Below the pieces are notes generated by a model, which worked only from the letters and a program-made list of their open reading frames with translations, made no database searches and had not been told where the DNA came from. The translations under genes and the position numbers were made by a program. From positions 25,783 to 89,782 of the IMG/VR virus record IMGVR_UViG_3300036402_000045: DNA of 64,000 nucleotides. One strand, 5' to 3'. This DNA comes from a virus. Below, piece after piece: positions 2,274-13,802 of this stretch (position 1 is the first letter of the stretch; each line of letters begins with the position of its first letter).

Positions 2274-4027
2274 AGGAGATCCCGAATGTTCTGGAGCGTG
2301 ATGCGCTCGATCTGTCGGCCACCGTCTCGCTCGATGGTCCGGTTGGCAAGCGCCCGCTTGTAGTTCAGGAGCGCTTCGATCCTCTGCTCGATCGTGTCTT
2401 CGGCCTGAAGCTCGATGACGTTGACCGTCGTGGCAAGAGCCTCCAGGCCACGCAGACCGCCCGCTGCGGAACGCCCGATGGCCTGATCGTTACCTGCCGG
2501 TGTCCAACCCTTGTCGGTGAAGACGACGTAGGTGGCAACGCCAAGGTTGATGGCCTCGCGGTTCGCATCGATGGTTCCGATGTAGAGCTTGCAATCCTCG
2601 TCGTTGTTGAACCTTCGGATTTCCTCCTGCCGACGACGCAGGTTGATCTCACCGGTGACATACGCCGGGGAATAAGCCTCAAGCTCCCGCTGGATGATGC
2701 GGGTTGCCTTGCTCCACTGGGAGAAGATGATCGCCTTCTCACCGTTGGCGACAAGCTCCCGAACGATGTCCTTCAGTTCGACGATCTTGGCCGAATCCTT
2801 CGACCCGCCGTAAAGCTCCGGAGAGAAGCAAGCCTGCTTCAGCCGGATGATCTGCGGAAGAGCACCGTTGATGTTTCGGATTTCGCCGTTGTCCATGCGA
2901 AGGATGAACTCGTCACGGATCTCGTTGTAGAGCGCCCGAGCTTCACGGGTCAGTTCGATCACGCGGGGAGCGATGATGACCTTCGGAAGATCCTTGAGCA
3001 CCTGATCCTTGCGACGACGCAGGGAGATGTTCTGAATGAAGTCCCGAAGCTCGCCCATCGGCTCCGGGCGGTAGCCAACCGTGGCACCGCCGTTCTTGAT
3101 GGAGATCGCGTCCACGAACCGGTCGTAGATCGGAAAGTCTTCCGGGTAGAGCTTGTGCAGAACGCTCCAGATCTCTTCCGGACGATTCAGGATCGGCGTG
3201 CCCGACATCATCAGCCAACGCTTGCCCTCAAGCTGGAAGAAGCCACGCGTGACCTGAGCATCCGGAGTCTTCACCCGATGGTGCTCATCAACCACGATGA
3301 AGTCGTACTCGAATCCGAAAAGCTCTTCGTTGGCGAACTCGTATCCGATGATCTTCTTGTGAACGTTGCCGTCCTCGTAGATCGGCTTGGCCCGGATCGC
3401 CTCAAAGTTGACGACGGTGATCTCGGCCCGCTTCTCGATCTGTGCAGAGCGCTCTGCGCGTGTTCCGTTGACGACCTGAACCTCGAAGTCGAACTTGTCC
3501 GTGGCTTCAGATTCCCAGTTGAACTTCGCGCTGTTCGGGCAGACGACGAGCGTGCGGAACTGCTTGCCCTTCTTCTCGGCCTTCACCGCCATGATGCGGA
3601 TCGCAGCCAGAAGCATGATGGTCTTCCCTAGACCCATCTCGTCATTGAGAAGATCGATCTCTTCCTCCAGGATCTTCCCGACCGCAACCTTCTGGAAGTT
3701 GTAGAGCTTGCCTTCGAAGCCCGGAATCCGAAGCTTCGGAATCGGCATATCCGCAAGCCGCTTCTCTTCGGCTCGCGTTAGCCGTGCGTAGACGCCCTTC
3801 GAAAGCTCTGCCATCGGGAACGCCAACGACAGACGATCGAAGTACCGCATGTTGAACCGGAAGAGCCACTTGCTCAATTCCTGGTCGTACTCCGCAACGG
3901 GATCGGTGCCGAGAGGAAGGATCTCGCGCATGATGACGCTCTGCGCCTCGTACTTCTCGCTGGAGTCACACATCAAGACGATGTGCTTGCCCCTCGGATC
4001 GTTCTTCTTCGACAAGGTGATCTTCAC
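2270..4027 (-). CDS. SNF2-family (SF2) helicase/translocase
   Basis: DEMGLGKT (Walker A), VVDEHH, SGTPILN, IIFSQW, EAINL motifs; GTG at 4027 is 7 nt after a -10 box. Confidence 0.92.
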   Translation of the reverse strand: MKITLSKKNDPRGKHIVLMCDSSEKYEAQSVIMREILPLGTDPVAEYDQELSKWLFRFNMRYFDRLSLAFPMAELSKGVYARLTRAEEKRLADMPIPKLRIPGFEGKLYNFQKVAVGKILEEEIDLLNDEMGLGKTIMLLAAIRIMAVKAEKKGKQFRTLVVCPNSAKFNWESEATDKFDFEVQVVNGTRAERSAQIEKRAEITVVNFEAIRAKPIYEDGNVHKKIIGYEFANEELFGFEYDFIVVDEHHRVKTPDAQVTRGFFQLEGKRWLMMSGTPILNRPEEIWSVLHKLYPEDFPIYDRFVDAISIKNGGATVGYRPEPMGELRDFIQNISLRRRKDQVLKDLPKVIIAPRVIELTREARALYNEIRDEFILRMDNGEIRNINGALPQIIRLKQACFSPELYGGSKDSAKIVELKDIVRELVANGEKAIIFSQWSKATRIIQRELEAYSPAYVTGEINLRRRQEEIRRFNNDEDCKLYIGTIDANREAINLGVATYVVFTDKGWTPAGNDQAIGRSAAGGLRGLEALATTVNVIELQAEDTIEQRIEALLNYKRALANRTIERDGGRQIERITLQNIRDLL

Positions 4028-4064: not shown

Positions 4065-4081
4065 GCGAATATTCGGAAACC

Positions 4082-4204
4082 CAGAGAGGGTCCGGTCGCC
4101 TTTCCCCGTCCGATCCCCCGCCAAGGGAATCGTGGGTTAGTGAACGCTTGGGGAAAAGCGCAGGCGACCTTGATCTCCGAAAGGCTGGAGACTGACCCTC
4201 TCTG
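4082..4204 (-). ncRNA. candidate structured non-coding RNA (~122 nt)
   Basis: Perfect 11-bp terminal stem 4082-4092/4194-4204; nested stems 4094-4101/4162-4169 and 4101-4107/4150-4156; hairpins 4111-4132 and 4174-4191; CGTATCA just upstream on the minus strand. Confidence 0.65.
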
Positions 4205-4209
4205 AGACT

Positions 4210-10361: not shown

Positions 10362-10673
10362 TTAGAAGGAGTAGTCGTGGAACTTGTGGCGACCAGGCAC
10401 CAAACGGGTTCCGGTGTGCATGGACTGACCGCGCTGGACCCACTTGCCGTTCGAGCGCAGCGTGAAGATGATCTTGCGACCGTTCTCGTCTCGCTCATAG
10501 CTGTAGCTCTGGTCTTCGCTCATCCCGTGCGTGTCGGTTCGAGTGGCGGTGTCCTGCTGCCACGTCACGGACTTGCGAGAGGGAGAAGCGCCCACGATGG
10601 TTCCGGCGTGACGGTCGGACCACATGCAGATCGTTGCGCCTTCCCCGATCACGAAGCTCTGAAGGGTTTCCAT
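10362..10673 (-). CDS. hypothetical phage protein (leaderless)
   Basis: METLQSFVIGEGATICMWSDRHAGTI...HDYSF; ATG 6 nt after a -10 box. Confidence 0.75.
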   Translation of the reverse strand: METLQSFVIGEGATICMWSDRHAGTIVGASPSRKSVTWQQDTATRTDTHGMSEDQSYSYERDENGRKIIFTLRSNGKWVQRGQSMHTGTRLVPGRHKFHDYSF

Positions 10674-10679
10674 GCCCTC

Positions 10680-10708
10680 AGTCAACATCACTTCAGAATG
10701 TTTGTCAA
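10680..10708 (-). promoter_or_regulatory. sigma70-type promoter with operator-like spacer
   Basis: TTGACA-N17(aacattctgaagtgatg)-TTGACT. Confidence 0.65.
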
Positions 10709-10754
10709 CAGGAAATCTCACGGAACGTTCGGAAGGTCGGCGTATCATCCGAAC

Positions 10755-10861
10755 ATGACGAAAGAGGCAGCCATGTAACCGCCGCCCGAAAGGGCGGATT
10801 TCCTCTCAGTAGTCAACGAAGGGCAGGCGACTTGGGTGCCACTCAATCCCTGCCCTTCGTC
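10755..10861 (+). other. structured leader or small RNA with a 7-codon uORF
   Basis: CGTATCA 10741-10747, N7, then ATG (MTKEAAM*, 10755-10778); GAAA-loop hairpin 10782-10797; 12-bp stem 10816-10827/10849-10860. Confidence 0.45.
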
Positions 10862-10902
10862 GCGTCTTGACACCGATCCGGTTAGCGCTCCTTCGGAAAG
10901 GC

Positions 10903-11055
10903 ATGAGACAAGACGACCAATCCATACGGGAGATCAAGCGCCGGTGGGAACGCGAGGCCAAGGAGATGACGGACGATGAACTGGTTCACCGCATCTACTC
11001 CCGAAGGGCCAACCAGTACGACCGGGCCGAGGCCAAGAAGCGGAATCTCGTATGA
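10903..11055 (+). CDS. small hypothetical protein
   Basis: MRQDDQSIREIKRRWE...; preceded by GGAAAGG. Confidence 0.55.
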   Translation: MRQDDQSIREIKRRWEREAKEMTDDELVHRIYSRRANQYDRAEAKKRNLV

Positions 11056-11208
11056 CCCGCCTTCTCTACCGTTTCGGCCAGGATACCGACTTCAGAAAGT
11101 TCTCCTAACTACCATATAGATAGTTAGTGGATTCGATCGTTCTTCCACTCGGTACTACGTAGCCCGCGGTTATCAAGATACGCAATACCTTGATGTGGAA
11201 AACCGCGT

Positions 11209-11586
11209 TCAAGCTCTCTTCCGTTTGGCCTCGGCTTTGGGACGCTCGTAGACGTGAACCAGAATGGCAACAATCTTTCCGTCTTCACGGACCTGTTCTC
11301 GTCGCACATAGCCACGCTCAACGAGTTCCTTCATGGCCGACCTGACCGAGAACTCTCCATCGGTCTTGGCTTTGGAAAGTTCCTCTACAAAGAAGTGCCA
11401 GTCATCCGGTCGGCTAAGCATGAACGCGAGCAAGCCCGTGGCTTTGAAGCTCAAGAGCGGATCACGCAGAGTGTCGTTCTCTATGCGTGTGTACGTCTCA
11501 TGCTTCTTGATTCGGTGGATGGTCTTCGAATCGAGCGTCATCTGTCTGACGGCAAGGGAACTGACCTTCTGATTCTTGGCTGTCAT
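11209..11586 (-). CDS. winged-HTH phage replication-initiator-like protein
   Basis: YTRIENDTLRDPLLSFKATGLLAFMLSRPDDW...SAMKELVERGY; RBS AGGAG. Confidence 0.8.
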   Translation of the reverse strand: MTAKNQKVSSLAVRQMTLDSKTIHRIKKHETYTRIENDTLRDPLLSFKATGLLAFMLSRPDDWHFFVEELSKAKTDGEFSVRSAMKELVERGYVRREQVREDGKIVAILVHVYERPKAEAKRKRA

Positions 11587-11771
11587 GTTGTATGCTCCTG
11601 CTTGGTATCGGGACAGGTGCCACCGTACACGGCCCCCACTATCCGAGCGCTCGTCGCTAACGGAGAAGGGGGCCGTGTCGCGTCTACCCTCGGCCACGGA
11701 GCCTGGTCGTTGTGTGTCCCGTAGCGACGGGATCAGCGACCGGCTCCACCTACTTTGCGTATCGTTGTGAT

Positions 11772-11912
11772 GCGGGAGGACTAAGAGCACACCGAGGCTC
11801 TGGCGAGCGCTTACAACACCAGGCCGAATCCATCGCTAGGCCAGGATGGAAGGCAAACACTCATCCCGGTAACGGGTTCGCTCAACGTCCAGAGATAGAG
11901 GCGTCCTCCCGC
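11772..11912 (+). ncRNA. candidate structured non-coding RNA (~141 nt)
   Basis: Perfect 10-bp terminal stem GCGGGAGGAC/GTCCTCCCGC; inner stems 11798-11803/11889-11894 and 11805-11809/11879-11883; starts 7 nt after CGTATCG (11758-11764). Confidence 0.6.
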
Positions 11913-11927
11913 TCTACACTTTCGGAT

Positions 11928-12098
11928 ATGCGGCGACAGAAGCTCGATCCGGATCTCAAGGCCAAGCTCAAGGCCGCACGTCTGCTTCGGAATGAGCGCC
12001 CGTCGTTAGGACTGAAAACCCGTCTACACGACGAGGTAGAGCGCAGACCCAACAGCCTTGACGATCCCGACACGACCGCAAGGGACGCTCTGGATTAG
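11928..12098 (+). CDS. small basic hypothetical protein
   Basis: MRRQKLDPDLKAKLKAARLLRNE... Confidence 0.45.
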   Translation: MRRQKLDPDLKAKLKAARLLRNERPSLGLKTRLHDEVERRPNSLDDPDTTARDALD

Positions 12099-12105
12099 CC
12101 GCCTG

Positions 12106-12112
12106 CGTATCA
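12106..12112 (+). promoter_or_regulatory. CGTATCA promoter-like element (leaderless dnaB)
   Basis: CGTATCA-N7-ATG with no RBS. Confidence 0.65.
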
Positions 12113-12119
12113 GGCATAT

Positions 12120-13394
12120 ATGACCGATCTCGACGGGGCGCTTGTCGCCTATGCCGTCCGTCGTCCGCTTGGGTTGACCGAGCTTCAGCGCGCTGGCATC
12201 ACAACTGAGTACCTGACCGATGACTATGCGAAGGCATGGGATTGGGTCAACCGCATGAAGCGCCAGCACGGTGCGATCCCTTCGCTTCGGGTCGTGCAGC
12301 AGCGCTATGCGGATCTCGATCTCACACCCGCTCGTCAACGAGACGTGCCGATGCTGGTTTCCGAAGTGAAGCAGCGGAAGAAGCTCATCGATTTCCACGA
12401 CGCAATCGAAAACGCTTCCTCTACCGCTCGATCGGTGGACGACATCGACCGTGCGCTCTCGCAGCTTCAGGCCCAACTCAACAGCCTCAACGTACAGGGG
12501 TTGGGCAACCAGTCGATCGTTGACCTGTTCAGCCGTTCCGCCAAACGACGGATGATGAAGGATCTGAAGCAGCGCCGGTCCGGGAAGATGATCGGCATCC
12601 CCACGGGGCTGAAGCGCTTCGACTTCGTGACGGGAGGACTCGTTTCCCGAAAGATGGTCGTCGTCATGGCGCGTACCGGCGTCGGCAAGTCATGGCTCAA
12701 CCTGCTCTTCGTTGCGAGCGCTGTCCTCAACGGCAACAAGGTCGTGCTCTATCCGTTGGAGATGACGCTGGAGGAAACGGCTCTTCGCCTCTACACGATC
12801 TTCAGCCAGAAGATGTTCCGAGGAAGCGACACTCTGAAGAACCTCGATCTGACGATGGGACGCTTCAGCCCTCGCAAGGTCGTGCGCCTGCTCAACATGC
12901 TGGAGGACAAGTACGAAGGTCAGTTGTTCGTGGCCGACGTTGCGAGCCTCAGCGATCCCTACACGCCCGAGCGGGTGGAGTCTGAAGTTGAGCTTTACAA
13001 GCCCGACATGTTCTGGGTCGATTACCTCACGCTCCTGAAGGCCCCGAACGGTCGCAGCGGTGCGGAGGACTACACATCGATCAAGGTGCTCTCCAACGCC
13101 ATCAAGGGGATCGCACAGCGACAGGGGTGTGTCGGTGGTGCATCGGCTCAGGTGAACCGCGACGCCATGAAGGTGCGAAGCTTCATCCCCCGTGTTGAGC
13201 ACATCAGCTACGGCGATTCCATCGGCCACGATGCGGATCAGATTCTTTCACTGGGGAGGAAGGATGAGCACCTTTACTACGGCCTCGTCAAGAACCGTGG
13301 CGGTCCCGAGATCGGGCGCACGCGCATGAAGGCGTTCTTCGATGAAGGACGTATCGAAGAGGACGAGCAACAGGAGTCCGAGGATGACGATTGA
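12120..13394 (+). CDS. dnaB: DnaB-like replicative helicase
   Basis: GIPTGL, ARTGVGKS (Walker A), LEM, VDYL, AQVNR, SIGHDAD, KNRGG. Confidence 0.92.
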   Translation: MTDLDGALVAYAVRRPLGLTELQRAGITTEYLTDDYAKAWDWVNRMKRQHGAIPSLRVVQQRYADLDLTPARQRDVPMLVSEVKQRKKLIDFHDAIENASSTARSVDDIDRALSQLQAQLNSLNVQGLGNQSIVDLFSRSAKRRMMKDLKQRRSGKMIGIPTGLKRFDFVTGGLVSRKMVVVMARTGVGKSWLNLLFVASAVLNGNKVVLYPLEMTLEETALRLYTIFSQKMFRGSDTLKNLDLTMGRFSPRKVVRLLNMLEDKYEGQLFVADVASLSDPYTPERVESEVELYKPDMFWVDYLTLLKAPNGRSGAEDYTSIKVLSNAIKGIAQRQGCVGGASAQVNRDAMKVRSFIPRVEHISYGDSIGHDADQILSLGRKDEHLYYGLVKNRGGPEIGRTRMKAFFDEGRIEEDEQQESEDDD

Positions 13395-13551
13395 GTTCAT
13401 GCGCTGTCCCTCCTGCAACAACGAGCACCTTAGGGATCATTGCGAAAGCCCGTCGTGCCCGTGGAAGAAGTGTCGCAACTGCAATGCGTACGGTCCCAAG
13501 TCACCGAATCCGAAAGTTCCGTGGCGTTCCGACAAGAAGGATGAACGATGA
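13384..13551 (+). CDS. small Cys-rich zinc-finger protein
   Basis: CPSC...HC...C...CRNC. Confidence 0.6.
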   Translation: MTIEFMRCPSCNNEHLRDHCESPSCPWKKCRNCNAYGPKSPNPKVPWRSDKKDER

Positions 13552-13802
13552 CCGGTCCCGATGAAGAGGCATTCCGTCAGCTTGCCAAGCAGGACACTCG
13601 GAAGTTCGTCATCACACAGGCGTTCGCGCACGGCTTCGTAACCCAAGTGATTCCGGTGATGACCCCAGACGGCGAGCACGAACAACAAATCCGCATCGAG
13701 GGGCCGTGGATGGAAGTCGGCTACTACGAGGAAGCTCTGTTCATCAAATCCTCAGCGATGCCCGCCTCAACGGTAGCGAAGTTCGAAGTGGTTTCCGAAT
13801 GA
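13548..13802 (+). CDS. hypothetical protein
   Basis: 84-aa coupled ORF with RBS. Confidence 0.65.
   Translation: MTGPDEEAFRQLAKQDTRKFVITQAFAHGFVTQVIPVMTPDGEHEQQIRIEGPWMEVGYYEEALFIKSSAMPASTVAKFEVVSE

Follow-up and report, generated by a model that had tools for sequence, protein, structure and literature searches.

Base pairing at the 5' terminus is an established means by which bacterial mRNA is stabilized. What defines the 5'-terminal stem-loop stabilizers is that their helix starts right at the 5' end of the RNA. The known examples (E. coli ompA and papA, B. subtilis aprE) are short local hairpins, and the cryIIIA STAB-SD element is an SD-like 5' stabilizer. Promoter-proximal antitermination RNAs include the put RNAs of phage HK022, which consist of two defined stem-loops, and among closed-end RNAs 6S RNA, Y RNA/YrlA and the retron msr-msd all have families in Rfam. 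The reference list of PMC3997798 includes Emory 1992 and Bouvet & Belasco 1992 on 5'-terminal base pairing and mRNA stability, together with a title on a polypurine stabilizer of phage SP82.

The locus studied here lies in a window of 64,000 nucleotides (bases 25783-89782 of an IMG/VR virus record with a length of 89,782 bp and an estimated completeness of 88%) with a G+C content of 58-60%. Judged by DnaB, the nearest cultured relatives of this virus are actinophages, at only ~26% identity, and its host is probably an actinobacterium from soil. A non-coding gap of 341 nt (11587-11927) separates two divergent units. On the minus strand to its left is the gene for a 125-aa winged-helix protein (11209-11586; phrog_4707 6.7e-22, phrog_186 2.6e-11) that resembles the N-terminal domain of replication initiators or DnaD-like loaders and has AGGAG 7 nt 5' of its ATG. 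On the plus strand to its right, a 56-aa gene with no known family (11928-12098) is followed by a CGTATCA promoter word (12106-12112) and, 7 nt further on, by the ATG of a DnaB-like replicative helicase (12120-13394; PF03796 1.2e-20, phrog_19 2.2e-46). The plus-strand genes run as a long co-oriented block from 11928 to about 33 kb.

A first-pass annotation of the sequence had proposed that 11758-11912 on the plus strand encodes a structured small RNA (candidate 2), with the same architecture as a second element at 4082-4204 (candidate 1). The reading that we prefer, tentatively and with a little less than even confidence, is that 11772-11912 forms a lineage-specific 5' untranslated leader of the 56-aa gene mRNA, with a long-range helix flush with its 5' end and possibly with read-through into dnaB. 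Transcription from the TTTGCGTATCG promoter would start at approximately G11772, and the first 10 nt of the RNA would pair with a 10-nt segment whose last base is 15 nt upstream of the AUG, so that the 5' end would be buried in a helix and 121 nt lacking a fixed fold would be looped out. If it forms in the cell, such a 5'-flush helix may shield the leadered mRNA from 5'-end-dependent decay. The promoter class appears otherwise to drive mostly leaderless mRNAs, which would be protected equivalently by a ribosome on the 5'-terminal AUG.

Compared with the 5'-terminal stem-loop stabilizers, candidate 2 would be similar in that its helix is placed at the predicted first base without a 5' overhang, upstream of a translated gene and with no terminator-like site between. 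Unlike the short local hairpins of ompA, papA and aprE, the 5' arm of candidate 2 has its partner 121 nt away, ending 15 nt before the AUG, and the start is a predicted one. A plain hairpin would suffice as a 5' shield, which counts against the leader reading and leaves the 141-nt loop-out, with a partner 121 nt away, unexplained. Like the SD-like 5' stabilizers of Gram-positive bacteria, the 5' arm of candidate 2 holds GGGAGGA with no start codon in range, and the same 8-mer, GGGAGGAC, is also present behind another CGTATCA site, at -1217. Unlike in those stabilizers, the predicted fold has the whole run paired to the CCUCC arm, which would hinder 30S binding, and the leader reading offers no explanation for an SD-like arm held in this way. 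The resemblance to promoter-proximal antitermination RNAs such as the HK022 put RNAs lies in the predicted position of a non-coding RNA immediately downstream of a phage promoter, where a co-oriented block begins; unlike put, candidate 2 has no defined interior fold, and separate promoters serve dnaB and the genes after it. Candidate 2 also shares with 6S RNA, Y RNA/YrlA and the retron msr-msd the pairing of 5' and 3' ends in a closing helix, but differs from them in having no Rfam match, no reverse transcriptase and no defined interior. A retron msr-msd was rejected as an identity for the element, PF00078 (reverse transcriptase) having no match in the 89.8-kb, 88% complete record. Literature searches, which did not use the word CGTATCA, returned no report of the element or of the CGTATCA promoter class.

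Promoter words and the predicted transcription start

Upstream of the candidate RNA is a promoter-like word, TTTGCGTATCG (11754-11764, plus strand), which is a G variant of the phage's TGCGTATCA class. CGTATCA behaves as a real promoter class in this phage. The word was found 10 times in the window compared to 3.47 expected, a count reached by 0 of 100 shuffles, and its strand was that of the flanking long open frames at 10/10 window sites. Across the genome, 15 of the 21 CGTATCA sites were followed by ATG or GTG after 6-7 nt (the 18954 case may be an internal ATG), and in a related phage (G001) and a related locus (L082) the word precedes leaderless GTG starts too. The sigma-70-like promoters (TTGACA ... 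TAnnnT) were similarly placed, with ATG or GTG ~6-7 nt past the -10 hexamer in 6 of the 9 listed. Start codons positioned 6-7 nt past the promoter words imply that the mRNAs of this phage are mostly leaderless, and leaderless mRNAs are described as common in Actinobacteria (PMC3898074 and PMC4633059). By Pfam, a phage sigma factor with region 2 was absent from the record.

To score the word at 11758, we derived a weight matrix from the 15 CGTATCA sites that are leaderless and used a cut-off score of 5. It scored 9.2 and was the only site to reach at least 5 within 11560-12010 on either strand. Like several A-variant sites it has an upstream TTTG, and it is located in the non-coding gap and oriented toward the next gene. 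A second G-variant site, at -15203, has an ATG 7 nt on. The bare CGTATCG word was not enriched (8 found compared to 5.99 expected), which counts against the leader reading. The earlier proposal that a single promoter class serves both candidates was therefore borne out for CGTATCA, by its enrichment and start-codon spacing, and weakened for candidate 2, which carries the unenriched bare G variant.

The core of the word, CGTATCG at 11758-11764, is followed 7 nt later by GCGGGAGGAC at 11772-11781, the same spacing as in the N7 leaderless sites. With start codons after 6-7 nt in this promoter class, the spacing makes the start of the closing helix coincide with the predicted 5' end of the RNA. 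The predicted transcription start would thus be G11772, the first base of the 5' arm.

The closing helix and the interior between its arms

The 5' arm GCGGGAGGAC is perfectly complementary over 10 bp to the 3' arm GTCCTCCCGC (11903-11912), with a start-to-start distance of 131 nt. All of the helices drawn in the first-pass annotation were confirmed in the sequence, including the closing helix 7 nt past CGTATCG, the interior stems CTCTGG/CCAGAG (11798-11803 with 11889-11894) and GAGCG/CGCTC (11805-11809 with 11879-11883), and the two hairpins TCCATC/GATGGA (11829-11834 with 11845-11850) and CCCG/CGGG (11865-11868 with 11873-11876). A fold with all of these helices enforced had an energy of -53.1 kcal/mol compared to a minimum free energy (MFE) of -53.5, so the original drawing is energetically possible. 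In the folding model it is one among many near-equal folds: pair probabilities were 0.89-1.0 for the closing helix and 0.19-0.62 for the drawn interior helices, and the MFE structure accounted for ~1% of the ensemble. The closing helix was retained when the fold was extended to 11960, into the 56-aa gene.

Comparison of the whole stretch with shuffled sequence depended on where its ends were set. For 11758-11912 the z values were -1.29 (plus strand) and -2.71 (minus strand), and for 11772-11912, cut exactly at the repeat, the plus strand gave z -2.64. The last value is inflated because the ends were picked for their pairing; 14 nt more returns it to -1.29. A fair control keeps both arms and dinucleotide-shuffles the 121-nt interior (n=400). 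In this control, 136 of 400 shuffles folded as well or better on the plus strand (z -0.37) and 138 of 400 on the minus strand (z -0.39), and the interior alone gave z -1.07 and -0.55, respectively. The interior (11782-11902, plus strand) therefore offers several weak stems as alternatives and lacks a defined fold, as would be expected of any 121-nt sequence with such a composition. The claim of a structured RNA held for the robust closing helix and failed for the branched interior, which was at chance on both strands. Nothing in candidate 2 exceeds chance apart from the closing helix and the register in which it stands to the promoter class. An interior at chance counts against the leader reading as well, the sole structural signal being one 10-bp repeat.

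The minus strand of the candidate 2 stretch had an MFE of -60.0 kcal/mol, 6.5 kcal/mol better than the plus strand, and this too does not favour a plus-strand RNA. It agrees, as does the better z of the minus strand, with a different and in our view improbable explanation in which the signal belongs to the other strand or to the DNA itself. The stretch would then be part of the promoter region or long 5' UTR upstream of the divergent DnaD-like gene, or the arms of the repeat and the hairpins next to them would serve in protein binding or as features of a replication origin. No promoter of the minus-strand gene was found in 11587-11750, which is filled by two hairpins, so that this promoter should be located further right, and the context is that of an initiator-like protein, a gap and a helicase. 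These points are opposed by the minus-strand interior, which folds at chance, by the lack of any minus-strand promoter-like site within 11750-11960, and by the arm word, which was not repeated beyond chance (11 matches at up to one mismatch compared to 10.05 expected). A replication origin at the gap was rejected in view of this non-iterated arm word and of a better candidate region ~24 kb to the left, where a large repeat-rich gap holds a cluster of DnaA-box-like words.

Inverted repeats of this length were frequent. Pairs with a seed of at least 10 within 250 nt numbered 53 in the window, and perfect pairs of at least 10 bp with an outer span of 60-260 numbered 39 in the 89.8-kb genome. Six of the latter were wholly non-coding compared to ~2.1 expected from crude gene calls, and four of these six come from two large gaps, rich in repeats, that the window does not include. 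A 10-bp inverted repeat taken alone is thus ordinary, and the 39 repeats in the genome count against assigning a function to this one.

The position of the repeat relative to the promoter word was less ordinary. A perfect helix of at least 10 bp starting 3-8 nt past the word was found at 3 of the 33 CGTATCR sites in the genome: 4216 on the minus strand (11 bp), 11758 on the plus strand (10 bp) and -13434 on the plus strand, antisense within a gene. As the first-pass annotation had described, both candidates therefore carry a perfect helix of 10-11 bp starting at the predicted transcription start. The background rate measured at 4000 random positions was 0.00425 per site, or 0.14 expected of 33, giving a Poisson probability of ~4e-4 for at least three such sites and of ~0.009 for at least two, in what was a post hoc test. 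The antisense case at -13434 is presumably due to chance, and that such chance cases occur counts against the leader reading. This is moderate evidence that the register of helix and promoter word is not accidental. A fourth in-register case, of 9 bp, is made by two neighboring promoter-plus-ATG words and looks like chance. None of the 57 CGTATCR sites in the five related phage records (G001-G005) was followed by an in-register helix of at least 10 bp, the best being 9 bp at G001 54746.

It is possible, though we regard it as rather doubtful, that the region is a leader or merely holds promoters or operators, and that the 10-bp repeat is a coincidence without functional RNA structure. The fold energy left unchanged by interior shuffling, the abundance of such repeats in genome and window, and the third start-site helix lying antisense within a gene are all as this explanation would have it. 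So is the absence of detectable conservation in the collections searched, and the element was originally picked out by eye, which entails large multiple testing. The per-site chance of a helix of at least 10 bp in register is low, however, and two of the cases are situated in non-coding gaps downstream of this promoter class, one of them being candidate 1, which is independently well folded.

The 56-aa gene and comparative searches

The leader reading depends on what follows the 3' arm. The ATG of the 56-aa gene is 15 nt past that arm, and the intervening 15 nt contain no purine-rich (GGAGG-like) run. In a scan of 11100-12300, nothing terminator-like was listed on the plus strand from the 3' arm onward. 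No CGTATCA-type word is found directly before the ATG of the 56-aa gene in this phage, which puts the expected start of its mRNA at 11772 and the length of the leader at 156 nt.

Judged from its homologues, the 56-aa frame is a real, conserved gene. A protein of the same length (P0122, 56 aa) is 58% identical, with the first eight and last four residues the same, and this protein and a DnaB homologue (P0003, 87% identical) probably derive from one ENA contig of 2,169 bp. A more distant homologue (pairwise E 6e-5) was found before dnaB in locus L082, at 1077-1271. That gene starts 7 nt past CGTATCA (CGTATCA-N7-GTG) and is leaderless. Neither Pfam nor PHROG has a family for the 56-aa protein. 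Coding across the element itself was considered and rejected: none of five overlapping frames, including 11712-12098, matched a Pfam family, the sole PHROG row had an E of 0.084, and the homologues of the small protein share the same start methionine. A tRNA-like element at L082 636-812 was likewise discarded, with ARAGORN and Rfam negative and z -0.98.

DnaB proteins at 73-89% identity exist (P0002-P0006). Nucleotide searches with 11000-12500 and 11000-13400 against the phage collection gave no match, and a single-protein DnaB search of viral_contigs gave no relative. Searching with a DnaB alignment (A1), we kept 80 loci from viral_contigs (best 54%) and 17 from metagenome_contigs (best 57%), and found none in genome_contigs. 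The comparison set consisted of the phage's own genome, five related phage records (73-81 kb) and 14 metagenome loci. BLAST of the 341-nt gap against the five related records returned chance rows only (E 0.26 and 0.29). Synteny was not kept among the related loci: the DnaD-like gene was present only in L002 (the same contig as L085), where it is co-oriented with dnaB, and the small 56-aa gene only in L082. No sequence variants were found in the gap among contigs of one DNA run, which is probably the source of the record.

Structure-based searches gave a similar picture. Covariance models of candidate 2 (R1) and candidate 1 (R2) found only their own sources in the comparison set, with the next rows at E of at least 0.58. 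No counterpart of candidate 2 was thus found in the five related phages or the 14 metagenome loci, which counts against the leader reading. Searches of each model against the other candidate (R1 with 4078-4208, R2 with 11772-11912) gave no cross-match at E up to 10, the sensitivity of such single-sequence models being low. The Rfam search suggested in the first-pass annotation was performed with Rfam 15 and gave 0 matches at the gathering score in the whole window and none in ten related loci; at E up to 10, 11550-12130 returned nothing meaningful, the sole row being H19_2 (13.3 bits compared to a gathering score of 50, E 0.88). ARAGORN found 0 tRNA or tmRNA genes. The two arms at a distance of 105-135 nt were found in 0 stretches of viral_contigs and in 74 stretches of genome_contigs from unrelated prokaryote taxa, where R1 scored at best 20.9 bits (E 0.07), which we judged to be little above the share of two identical arms. 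A miniature inverted-repeat mobile element or a host-derived element was not supported, with one copy in the genome and arms found elsewhere without a matching interior.

Candidate 1, the left half of the gap and the nature of candidate 2

Candidate 1 (4082-4204, minus strand) lies behind a CGTATCA at 4216-4210 and, in contrast to candidate 2, has a well-defined, strand-specific fold. As a whole it gave z -4.51 with an MFE frequency of 0.18. In the arms-kept control on the minus strand only 3 of 400 shuffles were as good (z -3.04; interior alone z -3.55, 2/400), compared to 72 of 400 on the plus strand (z -0.85; interior alone z -1.20, 51/400). By these folding statistics, candidate 1 has the look of a genuine RNA fold that is specific to one strand. 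In the 341-nt gap that holds candidate 2, the left half also folded far better than chance, with 11590-11757 giving z -4.66 on the plus strand and -3.24 on the minus strand, and with none of 200 shuffles matching it on either strand. This part, outside the flagged coordinates, contains two long hairpins (~11624-11682 and ~11698-11747). The hairpins are upstream of the predicted plus-strand start, and a promoter of the divergent gene located further right would place them in the 5' UTR of that gene. A model of 11590-11757 (R3) found no homologue. Both candidate 1 and these hairpins are statistically stronger than candidate 2.

The two candidates resemble one another in promoter word class, in a perfect helix of 10-11 bp at the predicted start and in their location in a non-coding gap. 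They had been proposed to form an RNA family, and this was not upheld: each model missed the other candidate, neither Rfam nor the related phages gave a match, and what the two have in common is architecture. The existence of candidate 1, with the same layout and promoter class and a good fold, nonetheless lends something to an explanation we consider unlikely, namely that candidate 2 is a discrete closed-end RNA of ~140 nt, made from its own gene or cut from the leader between 11912 and the AUG, and acting in trans, for example by protein binding. With its helix flush with the predicted 5' end and its 3' side closed, such an RNA would be nuclease-resistant, and PMC10986025 reports abundant non-coding RNAs from intergenic regions of actinophages. 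The explanation is opposed by the lack of a terminator-like site in the scanned region, by the conserved gene 15 nt further on, by an interior that folds no better than shuffles, by the absence of an Rfam family even at E up to 10 apart from the H19_2 row, and by the lack of similarity to candidate 1 by covariance model.

The same evidence on terminator, neighboring gene and interior indicates that candidate 2 is probably not a separate small RNA gene, as had first been proposed. A 5' UTR of the 11928 frame, which the first-pass annotation had named as the contrary case, is the more economical reading given the promoter, the absence of a terminator and the conserved gene. A broader and improbable conjecture is that closed-end RNA domains (candidates 1 and 2, and perhaps others in relatives) arise at the few places where CGTATCA-class promoters of this largely leaderless phage fire into non-coding sequence, each with a first base that also opens a long-range helix, and that they are cut off or persist as stable 5'-derived RNAs acting in trans, for example as a protein decoy or scaffold; these would constitute a class of phage RNA that has not been described and that is set apart by its architecture and not by its sequence.

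The main effect of this analysis is a lowered claim: candidate 1 is the only one of the two "sister" RNAs with a fold better than chance, and the best-folded part of the gap (11590-11757) falls outside the region that had been flagged. If its closing helix is functional, candidate 2 would be one more case in the still small set of structured leaders from uncultured actinophage-like viruses, and would show by what means a phage with a reliance on leaderless mRNAs can protect or control its rare leadered ones.

A promoter class for leaderless mRNAs

The whole genome has 21 sites of the word TGCGTATCA, and at 15 of them an ATG or GTG lies 6-7 nt further on; examples are at window positions 10741, 12106, 18354, 20903, 26559 and 32857. 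With this spacing, TGCGTATCA behaves as a second class of promoter that gives leaderless mRNAs. Of nine listed sigma-70-like promoters, six likewise have a start codon about 6-7 nt past the -10 hexamer. A Pfam search of the record gave no Sigma70_r2 domain.

The 5' arm of candidate 2

The 5' arm of the closing helix of candidate 2 (11758-11912, plus strand) lies behind the promoter word CGTATCG. The whole arm is contained in a four-codon frame, ATG CGG GAG GAC TAA (11770-11784), that starts 5 nt past this word. The word-to-ATG spacing is 1 nt shorter than at the 16 sites whose start codon lies at N6-7, and the candidate 2 RNA therefore probably begins inside or just past this ATG. On its two strands together, the genome has only four copies of the 8-mer GGGAGGAC (11774-11781), and the arms of candidate 2 account for two of them. 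Another is on the minus strand at about -1217 (negative coordinates lie left of the window), 7 nt past a further CGTATCA (-1203). A UCCUCC downstream of this copy could pair either with GGGAGGAC or, alternatively, with the Shine-Dalgarno run of the next gene.

Folded elements, and loci of relatives

Candidate 1 (4082-4204, minus strand) is well folded and strand-specific, with an energy z-score against shuffled sequence of -4.51, a minimum free energy structure frequency of 0.18 and a z-score of -3.04 when only the interior was shuffled and the closing-helix arms were kept. It is flanked by a CGTATCA word (4216-4210) and by the sigma-70-like promoter that serves the SNF2 helicase gene, and a covariance-model search of relatives returned no homologue. 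The left half of the intergenic gap that holds candidate 2 (11590-11757) also folds far above chance, and does so on both strands (z -4.66 on the plus strand and -3.24 on the minus strand; none of 200 shuffles was as good on either). Two long hairpins are predicted within it, at about 11624-11682 and 11698-11747, and a covariance-model search with this region found no homologue.

In the related phage locus L082, the homologue of the 56-aa gene that follows candidate 2 in the window (11928-12098) is leaderless. This locus contains some 170 nt of non-coding sequence (636-812), with a sigma-70-like promoter on one side and a CGTATCA word on the other, in which a possible GGAGAG/CUCUCC closing pair and a T-arm-like hairpin were seen; its fold gave a z of only -0.98, and ARAGORN and Rfam searches of it were negative. 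In L002 (related record G001), a minus-strand CGTATCA at 1355 is directed into a strong GC hairpin within 1300-1420 that doubles as the end of a convergent gene, and a CGTATCG word (1411-1417) lies upstream of the DnaD-like gene, which in this relative is co-oriented with dnaB. In L006 (3001-6360), DnaB is matched in three separate segments, covering residues 4-351, 337-376 and 366-424, over a span of 3.4 kb, suggesting inteins or inserted elements in the helicase gene of that phage.

Non-coding stretches left of the window

Two large non-coding stretches rich in short repeats, 987 and 819 nt long by crude gene calls, lie at about 10,500-11,480 and 12,900-13,720 of the full record (window coordinates of about -15288 to -14302 and -12879 to -12061). 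Words clustered in both orientations around -12330 to -12230 resemble the actinobacterial DnaA box. The region may be an origin or a DnaA-binding region, and the cluster hints at an actinobacterial host.
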